Virus record (IMG/VR): IMGVR_UViG_2671180460_000007
Span: 1 to 5,923 of that record
Length of the DNA: 5,923 bases
Origin: a virus
Lineage: Duplodnaviria; Heunggongvirae; Uroviricota; Caudoviricetes
Direction: 5' to 3' (one strand)
Numbering within the stretch: position 1 is the stretch's first letter; every line of letters starts with the position of its first letter. This document shows, piece after piece, positions 4,520 through 5,059 of this stretch. Under the pieces are notes generated by a model. It did no database searches and was not told the DNA's origin. It worked only from the letters and a program-made list of their open reading frames with translations. Both the position numbers and the translations under genes were made by a program.

Positions 4520-4547
4520 TTGCATCCGGAATATTTATTAGTATTAT
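4520..4547 (+). promoter_or_regulatory. Candidate sigma70 promoter for the tRNA transcription unit
   Basis: TTGCAT (4520-4525), 16-bp spacer, TATTAT (4542-4547); AT-rich UP-like sequence upstream (aaataaaatttttattcaaacaaattt); predicted start about 60 nt upstream of the first tRNA. Confidence 0.35.
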
Positions 4548-4614
4548 TTCTGCGGTTCCGAGGGGATGGTACGATATGTATCGGGGCATCTCATCTCACG
4601 CCCGAGGAACCAAC

Positions 4615-4690
4615 GCCGACTTAGCTCAGCAGGCAGAGCAGATGATTTGTAATCATCAGGTCACCAGTTCGATTCCGGTAGTCGGCACCA
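4615..4690 (+). tRNA. tRNA-Thr (anticodon UGU), 76 nt with encoded CCA
   Basis: Hand-folded cloverleaf: acceptor gccgact/agtcggc, U8 A9, D-stem gctc/gagc, anticodon stem gatga/tcatc with loop tttgtaa (anticodon TGT), 5-nt variable loop, T-loop ttcgatt, discriminator A, CCA. One A:C mismatch in the T-stem. G1-C72 and C2-G71 fit Thr identity. Resembles E. coli thrU in outline. Confidence 0.8.
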
Positions 4691-4693
4691 TAT

Positions 4694-4768
4694 GCGGGCA
4701 TCGTATAATGGCTATTACCTCAGCCTTCCAAGCTGATGATGCGGGTTCGATTCCCGCTGCCCGCTCCA
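4694..4768 (+). tRNA. tRNA-Gly (anticodon UCC), 75 nt with encoded CCA
   Basis: Acceptor gcgggca/tgcccgc, D-arm gtat...ttac, anticodon stem tcagc/gctga with loop cttccaa (anticodon TCC), T-arm gcggg ttcgatt cccgc (perfect), discriminator U, CCA. The sequence closely matches my recollection of E. coli glyT. Confidence 0.85.
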
Positions 4769-5033
4769 CAGTAACTAAGGCGAGATTGTTTCAGGCACTG
4801 ATGTAATATAATATATGTGGGGTGTTTTTTTCTGACTCCTTACCACGCCCTGTTCTGTAATGAGTGATATCAGTACAGTTCCAGTGCCACTTTTTTACAA
4901 CACCGGAATAATGCATTATTAGCCAGGATTTTGTTTTTTTCTTCTGCAAATGTATTATCCCGATGTTGTAAACATCGACAAAAACAAAACTGTGATTAGT
5001 CACATACTAAGTCAAGCCCGGAAATACATCCTT

Positions 5034-5059
5034 AACCGCCGCACCAGGCGGTTTTTTTT
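5034..5059 (+). terminator. Strong rho-independent terminator closing the tRNA transcription unit
   Basis: aaccgcc (5034-5040), loop gcacca, ggcggtt (5047-5053): perfect 7-bp stem followed by a run of 8 T (5052-5059). Confidence 0.7.

Follow-up and report, generated by a model that had tools for sequence, protein, structure and literature searches.

The tRNA pair and its trailer

The DNA analysed here, positions 1 to 5,923 of the IMG/VR virus record IMGVR_UViG_2671180460_000007 (Caudoviricetes; "the window" below means this whole stretch of 5,923 nt), belongs to a DLP12-like lambdoid prophage of Escherichia coli. It carries a pair of tRNA genes, tRNA-Thr(UGU) and tRNA-Gly(UCC), followed by a region without genes that ends at a strong intrinsic terminator and is called here the trailer. 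According to our comparison with homologues from other prophages, this trailer is not spacer DNA; it corresponds to a non-coding RNA module of the + strand that is both conserved and folded and that represents, within the databases and literature searched, an undescribed RNA family. There is nothing unusual in the two host-like prophage tRNAs or in where they lie, and public genomes already annotate them.

Pfam matches in the window comprise a Q antiterminator gene (PF06530, 410-793), a porin gene on the opposite strand (974-2080), an N6/N4 DNA methylase gene (2933-3997) and, beyond the trailer, TerB (5234-5659) and DUF3927 (5656-5805). The segment 408-2171 matches quuD-nmpC of DLP12, a cryptic prophage of K-12 that shares the Q-porin arrangement and has no tRNA cassette, at 81-88% identity, and the top relatives of the whole window are E. 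coli prophages, with 96.4% identity across 81% of its length. Positions 5806-5895 are of the same leader type as the sequence directly before the holin in a related prophage, and the ATG at 5896 begins the holin gene. Because of the Pfam genes, the likeness to DLP12 and the position of this leader, the tRNA cassette can be assigned to the interval from Q to the lysis genes, of which the holin leader and the start of the holin gene occupy 5806-5923; this interval is the cargo or moron zone of lambdoid phages.

ARAGORN finds exactly two tRNAs in the window, separated by 3 nt (TAT), and both score above the gathering score of 29 of the Rfam tRNA model RF00005 (Table 1). ARAGORN, Rfam and the sequence itself thus agree on the two genes, the anticodons, the short spacer and the encoded CCA ends that a preliminary description had read from the DNA. 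The likeness to chromosomal thrU and glyT proposed there is likewise borne out by alignment: tRNA-Gly is identical to K-12 glyT at 75/75 positions and tRNA-Thr to K-12 thrU at 69/76, the differences including two compensated base-pair changes in the anticodon stem. Compared with thrU and with the other prophage copies, this stem (4640-4660) has an A-U pair changed to G-C and a C-G pair changed to A-U, together with U in place of C32; neither the anticodon nor the acceptor stem is altered. Outside the mature tRNAs, comparison of the flanks found no homology to the thrU-tyrU-glyT-thrT operon, and the block is widely shared among prophages. The suggestion that this phage had captured a host tRNA segment is therefore not upheld, and the comparison identifies the tRNA unit as an old, circulating prophage module rather than a fresh capture.

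Codon usage lends modest support to a codon-supply role for the tRNAs. In the prophage segments of two related loci (L001 and L003) the cognate codons reach 14.1/1000 for ACA and 14.4-16.0/1000 for GGA, about twice the E. coli averages. The genes of the window (1,104 codons) use ACA at 6.3/1000 and GGA at 13.6/1000, and the check is weakly informative.

The trailer extends over 265 nt between tRNA-Gly and the terminator (4769-5033), or about 290 nt with the terminator included. Only two open reading frames touch it: one on the - strand (4791-5003) and one on the + strand (4950-5219), which continues across the terminator. Neither frame is conserved, since homologues differ by 7-nt and 4-nt insertions or deletions, which are not multiples of three, and a coding role was rejected. 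The list of open reading frames and the terminator scan accordingly agree with the preliminary description in finding no convincing gene before a strong terminator, and its guess that the trailer could be a non-coding RNA is strengthened by the conservation and covariation described below.

A sensitive search with positions 4769-5130 recovered the trailer in 263 of 5,426 complete E. coli genomes (about 5%), with some 346 copies in all, mostly at 60-80% identity. A motif scan placed it in 15 IMG/VR viral contigs, and among the deposited phage genomes examined it occurs only in SerU-LTIIb and vB_EcoS-683R6; the same kind of scan applied to genome contigs gave just two chance matches, in unrelated metagenome-assembled genomes (L006 and L007). 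In the annotated loci examined, the trailer stands directly behind tRNA-Gly and before either TerB-DUF3927 or holin-holin-endolysin, with L032 as the sole exception, and these loci have about 350-650 nt without an annotated gene. In 20 loci, 276-307 nt separate the end of tRNA-Gly from that of the terminator, and one subgroup carries an insertion of about 100 nt. The carriers include toxin prophages, namely the LT-IIb phage and prophages with AB5 toxin genes. Among E. coli strains, 52F4 and EC11 are lysogens with the cassette, and SE11 and 08-00022 have variants of it.

A profile search (nhmmer) found a single copy in the window and, in both SerU-LTIIb and L025, a second copy in tandem, which shows that the unit of tRNA-Gly plus trailer can be duplicated. 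These second copies (L002 1277-1497 and L025 737-1135) are more diverged, lie within the same prophage as the first and follow either a tRNA-Arg/tRNA-Gly pair (SerU-LTIIb) or a weak tRNA-like match (L025 643-712, 31.8 bits).

The trailer as a whole folds more stably than dinucleotide shuffles (z = -3.88). Its first element, downstream of a variable linker, is a four-way junction closed by stem P1 (Table 1). When this domain is folded in isolation, P1 and the three hairpins form in 21 of the 22 distinct variants, including four loci whose internal hairpins are unrelated in sequence, with shuffle z values from -2.6 to -4.9. A covariance model of the junction (R1), built from seven sequences and then used to align the others, scores the window at 68.8 bits. 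In the resulting alignment (A8), 96.5% of the cells are paired, as against 29-53% when the register is slid. Changes on both sides affect 14 of the 28 pairs, a level reached by 0/500 shuffles. In stem P2, for instance, 11 sequences have G-C and 7 have A-U at one pair, and at the adjacent pair C-G and U-A occur in 7 sequences each. Together with the U-run that follows it, P1 may also constitute a first, atypical terminator.

The second element is a long imperfect hairpin, extended to about 35 bp in most homologues. Across 22 distinct sequences, 93.2% of its cells form standard pairs, compared with 34-52% in slid registers; seven pairs are changed on both sides (9/500 shuffles reach this number), corresponding to 21 such cells (0/500), and RNAalifold independently predicts the helix. 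The pairing is also asymmetric between strands, with 93.2% on the + strand and 79.4% on the - strand, and with 127 G·U cells against 22 A·C cells. This asymmetry points to an RNA of the + strand, and not to a palindrome in double-stranded DNA or to an RNA of the - strand.

At the 3' end of the right arm of this hairpin (4962-4976), an alternative pairing with the bases that follow is possible, GAUGU...ACAUC, which in the other haplotype group reads GGUGUU...AACACC, with both sides changed. It could form an alternative, mutually exclusive small hairpin; the change may reflect a single evolutionary event.

The 3' part of the trailer is mostly unpaired; should a small RNA be released from the 3' end, this part would be a candidate for its seed or for Hfq binding. 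It leads into the main terminator, whose stem is unchanged, with a varying loop, in all but one of the aligned homologues. The second terminator-like hairpin is stronger in homologues than in the window, with stems GGTCCG/CGGGCC and GGCTCG/CGGGCC (U·G and C-G variants). Beyond the conserved module tail, the sequences of the window and of L001-L003 split into a TerB type and a holin type (alignment A1).

Table 1. Coordinates of the tRNA cassette and its elements in the window.
Feature	Positions	Strand	Basis and remarks
Whole tRNA cassette	4040-5127	+	Common to L001, with other neighbours on both sides
Intrinsic terminator upstream of the promoter	4416-4447	+	Terminator scan; 10-bp stem GCCCACTGG...CTGGTGGGT and T-run
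Candidate sigma-70-type promoter	4520-4525 / 4542-4547	+	TTGCAT-N16-TATTAT; hexamers and spacing kept across loci
Structured 5' leader stem	4554-4611	+	GGUUCC-GA-GGG...CCC-GA-GGAACC, read from the sequence; ends 3 nt before tRNA-Thr
tRNA-Thr(UGU)	4615-4690	+	ARAGORN; Rfam tRNA model, 66.9 bits; encoded CCA
tRNA-Gly(UCC)	4694-4768	+	ARAGORN; Rfam tRNA model, 64.9 bits; encoded CCA
A/U-rich linker	4769-4793	+	Unpaired in the minimum-free-energy fold; sequence variable among homologues
Cloverleaf-like four-way junction	4794-4888	+	P1 GGCACUG (4794-4800) / CAGUGCC (4882-4888) encloses three hairpins
U6 run	4891-4896	+	2 nt after P1; 5-7 U, kept in all homologues; also base of the left arm of the long hairpin
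Long imperfect hairpin	4894-4972	+	24-nt arms 4894-4917 / 4949-4972; inverted repeat I2, 88% complementary
Mostly unpaired segment	4973-5033	+	Alignments and minimum-free-energy fold; conserved 3' part UACUAAG...GGAAAUACAUCCUUAACC
Main intrinsic terminator	5034-5059	+	Terminator scan; AACCGCCGCACCAGGCGGTT (5034-5053) and T8; 7-bp GC-rich stem
Second, weaker terminator-like hairpin	5074-5096	+	GGACCG...CGGACC and U5, from the sequence; below scan criteria in the window
Conserved module tail	5097-5127	+	CATATCCGCG.CACGCCCGGCGCACATCA; alignment A1

The covariance search that had been proposed for the trailer gave no family. Rfam searches of the whole window (E<=1) and of the trailer alone (E<=10) returned no family for the trailer beyond spurious microRNA-precursor matches; mir-983 and the others (42 bits against a gathering score of 100) are artefacts of the long A/U-rich hairpin. 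The prophage small RNAs AgvB and AsxR (RF02702, RF02703), for which we required an Rfam match and a length of 51-60 nt with a conserved 3' region of about 42 nt, were unmatched at these same thresholds for window and trailer. The trailer does contain UUACAACAC, with a motif (ACAACAC) like the GcvB-target consensus CACAACA (PMC4104026); it lies within a hairpin stem and is unconserved, with variants ACAAUAG and ACGCCAC, and an AgvB-like anti-small-RNA was rejected on these grounds.

PasA, PasC and PasD were discarded as well, despite the shared context of TerB, tRNAs and holin. Their sequences were taken from strain E2348/69 by the coordinates in PMC8550237 Table S6, and blastn-short against them gave only chance words of 8-11 nt. 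PasA and PasC, moreover, run against the late genes around them, in the interval from the esterase to the holin gene, whereas covariation and the G·U asymmetry place the trailer RNA on the strand of the late operon and the window holds no esterase gene. The IS200 leader RNA STnc490 (RF01405) has no match in the window at E<=10, and the trailers of the window and L003 are unlike IS200C; the L032 locus is a mosaic. Descent from the upstream region 4100-4460 by paralogy was dismissed, with a local alignment score of 27 against a shuffle mean of 26 and a single nhmmer copy, and so was a T-box-like pairing to the anticodon arms of thrT, thrU and glyT, in which 8-nt matches recur in 10-20% of shuffles. 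The literature searched holds no description of the trailer, and its motifs are absent from the paper texts scanned.

The cassette and its relatives

The promoter-like element described beforehand for the tRNA genes is present as stated and backed by comparison across loci. In five diverged loci (the window and four others) both hexamers (-35 and -10) are kept, at a constant distance of 16 nt, as the spacer sequence drifts: the hexamers are TTGAAC/TATGAT in Shiga toxin (Stx) phage phi467, TTGCGA/TATTAT in L037 and TTGAAA/TAATAT in L030, and they are conserved in L001 too. In K-12, TTGCAT likewise occurs upstream of thrU as a plausible -35 hexamer. The leader stem is kept in phi467, L001, L037 and L030, with a compensatory change (GGUUCU/AGAACC) in L037. 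This five-locus comparison supports the element as a probable promoter, followed by a structured leader.

Upstream, the terminator at the end of the region that separates the methylase gene from the tRNA promoter is predicted to stop non-antiterminated transcription from the methylase side. This non-coding region (4100-4460) is itself extremely structured as RNA (minimum free energy z = -6.56), with an inverted repeat of 28-nt arms (4279-4306 / 4347-4374) and a long hairpin near 4190-4255, and is common only to L001. Long hairpins consequently flank the tRNAs on both sides, in this region and in the trailer.

The cassette recurs as a block of about 94% identity in L001, a prophage of E. coli 52F4, where it lies between a DUF1133 gene and holin genes. 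Positions 4040-4614 of the window are 93.9% identical to L001 5541-6115, and positions 4500-5127 are 93.6% identical to the corresponding stretch. Its neighbours differ on both sides, with the methylase gene on the left in the window and DUF1133 in L001, and TerB on the right in the window and holin in L001.

The preliminary description had set the Thr/Gly pair apart from the Ile/Arg tRNAs of Stx phages, a contrast that does not hold. In phi467, the promoter, leader, tRNA-Thr and tRNA-Gly directly follow stxAB, and relatives combine these tRNAs with Ile and Arg: several prophages carry the Thr/Gly pair behind tRNA-Ile, others have tRNA-Gly after tRNA-Arg or after Ile/Arg, and the LT-IIb phage SerU-LTIIb has the Thr/Gly pair plus a separate tRNA-Arg/tRNA-Gly pair. 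In phi467 (L036, LN997803.1, 334-2744) the pair is followed by a 293-nt trailer of unrelated sequence, in which a hairpin that is long and perfect, ATGAATGATCGC...GCGATCATTCAT, and a terminator precede the S holin gene.

In L032 (NZ_OU342919.1, 1-1810), the place of the tRNAs and of the 5' part of the trailer is taken by an AB5-toxin cassette plus a fragment of IS200. The remaining 3' half is kept together with TerB; the junction falls inside the long hairpin, which is re-formed with a foreign left arm. The cassette encodes a subtilase-type AB5 toxin B subunit, an enterotoxin A family protein and a hypothetical protein, and the IS200 left-end fragment, of about 72 nt, scores 48 bits against RF01405 (STnc490; gathering score 56).

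Interpretation and alternatives

Taken together, our findings make it probable that this stretch forms a moron-type tRNA cassette that is autonomous, equipped with its own promoter, leader, tRNAs, structured trailer and tandem terminators and placed between Q and the lysis genes. Within such a cassette the trailer would most likely act as an RNA-level insulator and processing module, and it would possibly yield a stable small RNA.

The model that we propose is as follows. The upstream terminator would close off incoming transcription, and the sigma-70 promoter would give rise to a transcript of about 500 nt that comprises the hairpin leader, tRNA-Thr, the 3-nt spacer, tRNA-Gly and the trailer. 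On the + strand, the trailer would fold into the junction with its U-run, the 24-35-bp hairpin, an unpaired conserved stretch and the two terminators at 5034-5059 and 5074-5096. In the lysogen, these terminators, stacked behind P1 and the U-run, would shield TerB, the holin gene and the lysis genes from the constitutive tRNA promoter; upon induction, Q-modified polymerase arriving from upstream would read through the entire cassette. The tRNAs would be freed by RNase P and by an endonucleolytic cut in the linker, the putative site of 3' processing, and the compact remainder of the trailer would be expected to persist as one or two stable RNAs. In this regard, the long hairpin would be a likely RNase III-type processing site or a protection for the 3' end, and a 3' piece with its U8 tail would have the shape of an Hfq-binding small RNA.

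Several points weigh against this model. Transcription from the promoter, the efficiency of termination, processing, the stability of the RNA and a role in trans are all steps that we infer. The promoter was not called by a simple consensus scan, because it has only 8/12 consensus matches, and in several homologous loci, such as L003, the tRNAs stand right behind another gene or tRNA, with scant room for a promoter. The junction alignment (A8) was fitted to the covariance model, and the shuffle controls overstate covariation because the homologues are related by descent and recombination. In addition, the trailer is dispensable for carriage of the Thr/Gly pair, since the pair in phi467 has an unrelated one. 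Finally, insulation needs only a terminator and therefore leaves the conservation of the junction and of the long hairpin unexplained.

For this last reason, a function of the RNA itself stays a live possibility. It is conceivable, though we hold it with clear reserve, that the trailer, with its junction, hairpin and U8 terminator, represents a new family of structured prophage RNA that travels with tRNA-Gly(UCC), is freed from the precursor and has a function of its own, either as a regulator or sponge that binds Hfq or ProQ and targets host RNAs in the lysogen, or as a switch in cis that governs the amount of transcription, and the kinds of processed mRNA, arriving at the holin and lysis genes. 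A related account, to which we give an equally tentative standing, takes the trailer to be mainly a trans-acting regulatory RNA. A cleaved junction RNA (about 105 nt, ending in U6), an RNA from the hairpin to the terminator (about 90-170 nt, ending in U8) or both would bind Hfq or ProQ and target mRNAs or small RNAs of the host or the phage, much as the 3'ETS-leuZ sponge (3'ETS, 3' external transcribed spacer) and the prophage anti-small-RNAs do. This account overlaps with the insulator and processing model and differs in making trans-regulation the selected function.

The structure and the unpaired 3' segment are conserved well beyond what termination needs, as a trans-acting RNA would have it, and the combination of a GC-rich terminator and a U8 tail is a typical trait of small RNAs that depend on Hfq. 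The same prophage region, moreover, is known to encode abundant Hfq-bound small RNAs (PMC4104026; PMC8550237; bioRxiv 10.64898/2026.05.13.724894), and the retention in L032 of the 3' half without a tRNA, with its hairpin restored by a foreign arm, would also fit a function carried by that half. Set against these points, the trailer has no likeness to the known small RNAs searched, its ACAACAC motif is sequestered in a stem and unconserved, its complementarity to tRNAs is at chance level and, at about 290 nt, it is far longer than known 3'ETS sponges or anti-small-RNAs.

A feature acting at the level of DNA is an improbable explanation. The trailer would then be a module boundary or linker that aids lambdoid recombination, or a hairpin in single-stranded DNA for a transposase of the IS200/IS605 or REP type. 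The block does lie at mosaic junctions between differing upstream and downstream modules, the junction in L032 falls inside the hairpin next to an IS200 left-end fragment (RF01405), and G·T wobbles would be tolerable in a hairpin of single-stranded DNA too. However, the likeness to IS200C and the STnc490 match are missing from the window and L003 trailers and no transposase lies nearby; compensatory changes occur in four separate helices, and a topology kept despite replaced hairpins is unexpected for a recombination linker. The asymmetry in pairing, furthermore, fits the transcribed strand.

It is more doubtful still that the trailer is the leader of the late operon, with the tRNA promoter as pR', the trailer as a counterpart of lambda 6S RNA or StxS and the main terminator as tR'. 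The unit does end in strong terminators, several prophages have it directly before their lysis genes, and the nearest upstream gene is Q-like in L001, L034 and L037. In the window, though, Q ends at 793, 3.7 kb upstream, in a DLP12-like Q-porin arrangement, and the trailer is found with three types of Q gene (the PF06530 type, "antitermination protein Q" and DUF1133). The distance and the variety of Q types argue against a Q-specific pR'-tR' leader. In phi467, moreover, the unit of promoter and tRNAs comes after stxAB, whose transcription starts at pR'; the only promoter-consensus match inside the trailer is weak (9/12, 4884-4912).

Least probable of all is that the junction is a decayed third tRNA gene, such as a thrT remnant, within an otherwise neutral spacer: its cloverleaf-like topology, its 7-bp closing stem 25 nt after tRNA-Gly and the K-12 order, in which thrT follows glyT after 6 nt, invite the idea, but ARAGORN makes no call at thresholds of 60-100% or in mitochondrial mode, RF00005 finds nothing there at E<=10, the junction has no T-loop or D-loop motifs, and neither compensatory changes nor a constant topology with replaced hairpins would be kept in a pseudogene; the rest of the trailer covaries too.

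The tRNAs of prophages as a rule receive an annotation and no further attention, and what follows them is taken as spacer; in the present case that DNA holds a conserved, covarying RNA structure in about 1/20 complete E. coli genomes, immediately upstream of the lysis genes that kill the cell. If the trailer is an insulator and processing platform only, it shows how a strong constitutive promoter can be tolerated beside a holin gene, and it furnishes a clean and portable definition for tRNA morons. If it gives a stable regulatory RNA, it would be a new and unusually large member of the prophage small RNAs (AgvB, AsxR, Pas, StxS) that reprogram pathogenic E. coli, and it would extend the idea of the 3' external transcribed spacer from the chromosome to phages. 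In either case the family can now be annotated, and a covariance model can be built from the alignments.

Neighbouring sequences and known systems

Between the trailer and the holin leader (window 5128-5895), TerB and DUF3927 (5234-5805), with a conserved 5' region, look like a separate cassette; in L001 the same type of holin leader directly follows the trailer, with no TerB between. The region before TerB (5086-5233) recurs at 93-94% identity, unannotated, in the records of Actinobacillus phage vB_Apl-pPE4 and Enterobacteria phage PPyecE_EH1910, and an inverted repeat in front of the gene, CCACAGAG (5130-5137) / CTCTGTGG (5178-5185), suggests a structured 5' untranslated region. The holin leader holds two further terminator-like hairpins.

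On the other side of the cassette, the Q-porin intergenic region (794-973, - strand) is DLP12-like, with 81% identity to quuD-nmpC. It contains a - strand terminator (835-818), about 140 nt past the porin stop codon, and a 13-bp hairpin on the + strand (926-958). The site is presumably the one at which the IpeX small RNA of DLP12 was described, and an IpeX-like 3' RNA of the porin gene may exist there. Between the porin and methylase genes, positions 2375-2463 resemble the DLP12 region before essD (81%), and an open reading frame of 65 aa (2585-2782), with a Shine-Dalgarno-like sequence and no Pfam match, is followed by a terminator-like hairpin (2769-2786).

The chromosomal counterpart of the tRNA pair is the K-12 thrU-tyrU-glyT-thrT-tufB operon, which has the same UGU and UCC anticodons and TTGCAT before thrU. 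It differs from the cassette in having tyrU and a 116-nt spacer where the latter has 3 nt, and thrT and tufB where the latter has its trailer of about 290 nt. The cassette, for its part, is set apart by non-homologous flanks, by the changes in the Thr anticodon stem and by its location in a prophage. Among phages, the moron-region tRNAs of lambdoid and Stx phages (933W type, with the arrangement ileZ-argN-argO) are likewise found downstream of Q and before the lysis genes, and are presumed to supply tRNAs for codons rare in the host. The cassette differs from them in its tRNA pair and in forming a block of about 1.1 kb that is portable and complete with terminator, promoter, leader and conserved trailer.

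As regards position, the trailer also resembles AgvB, AsxR, PasA/PasC/PasD, Esr41 and STnc100, which are intergenic RNAs located from Q or the cargo to the holin in lambdoid prophages and which end in intrinsic terminators. PasA and PasC have been linked to TerB, tRNAs and holin-lysozyme operons (bioRxiv 10.64898/2026.05.13.724894). AgvB, AsxR, PasA and PasC measure 51-85 nt, and AsxR, PasA and PasC are antisense or convergent to the late operon (PMC4104026; PMC8550237 Table S6). The trailer lies on the strand of the late operon, is far longer and matches none of these RNAs in sequence or model.

Two further systems join a tRNA unit to an RNA of another kind. The stable RNAs C and D of phage T4 (species 1 and 2) lie at the end of a tRNA cluster, are structured and are co-transcribed and processed with the tRNAs; they differ from the trailer in belonging to a virulent phage, in their unrelated sequences and in having no terminator or insulator context before lysis genes. 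The trailer is also unlike the 3'ETS of glyW-cysT-leuZ, a small-RNA sponge of about 53 nt and simple form, in that it spans about 290 nt and contains both a four-way junction and a hairpin of 24-35 bp. Both are nevertheless non-coding and situated between the last tRNA and an intrinsic terminator, as positions 4769-5059 are in the window, and the trailer would likewise be co-transcribed with the tRNAs; 3'ETS-leuZ provides the precedent for a tRNA trailer with a function of its own.

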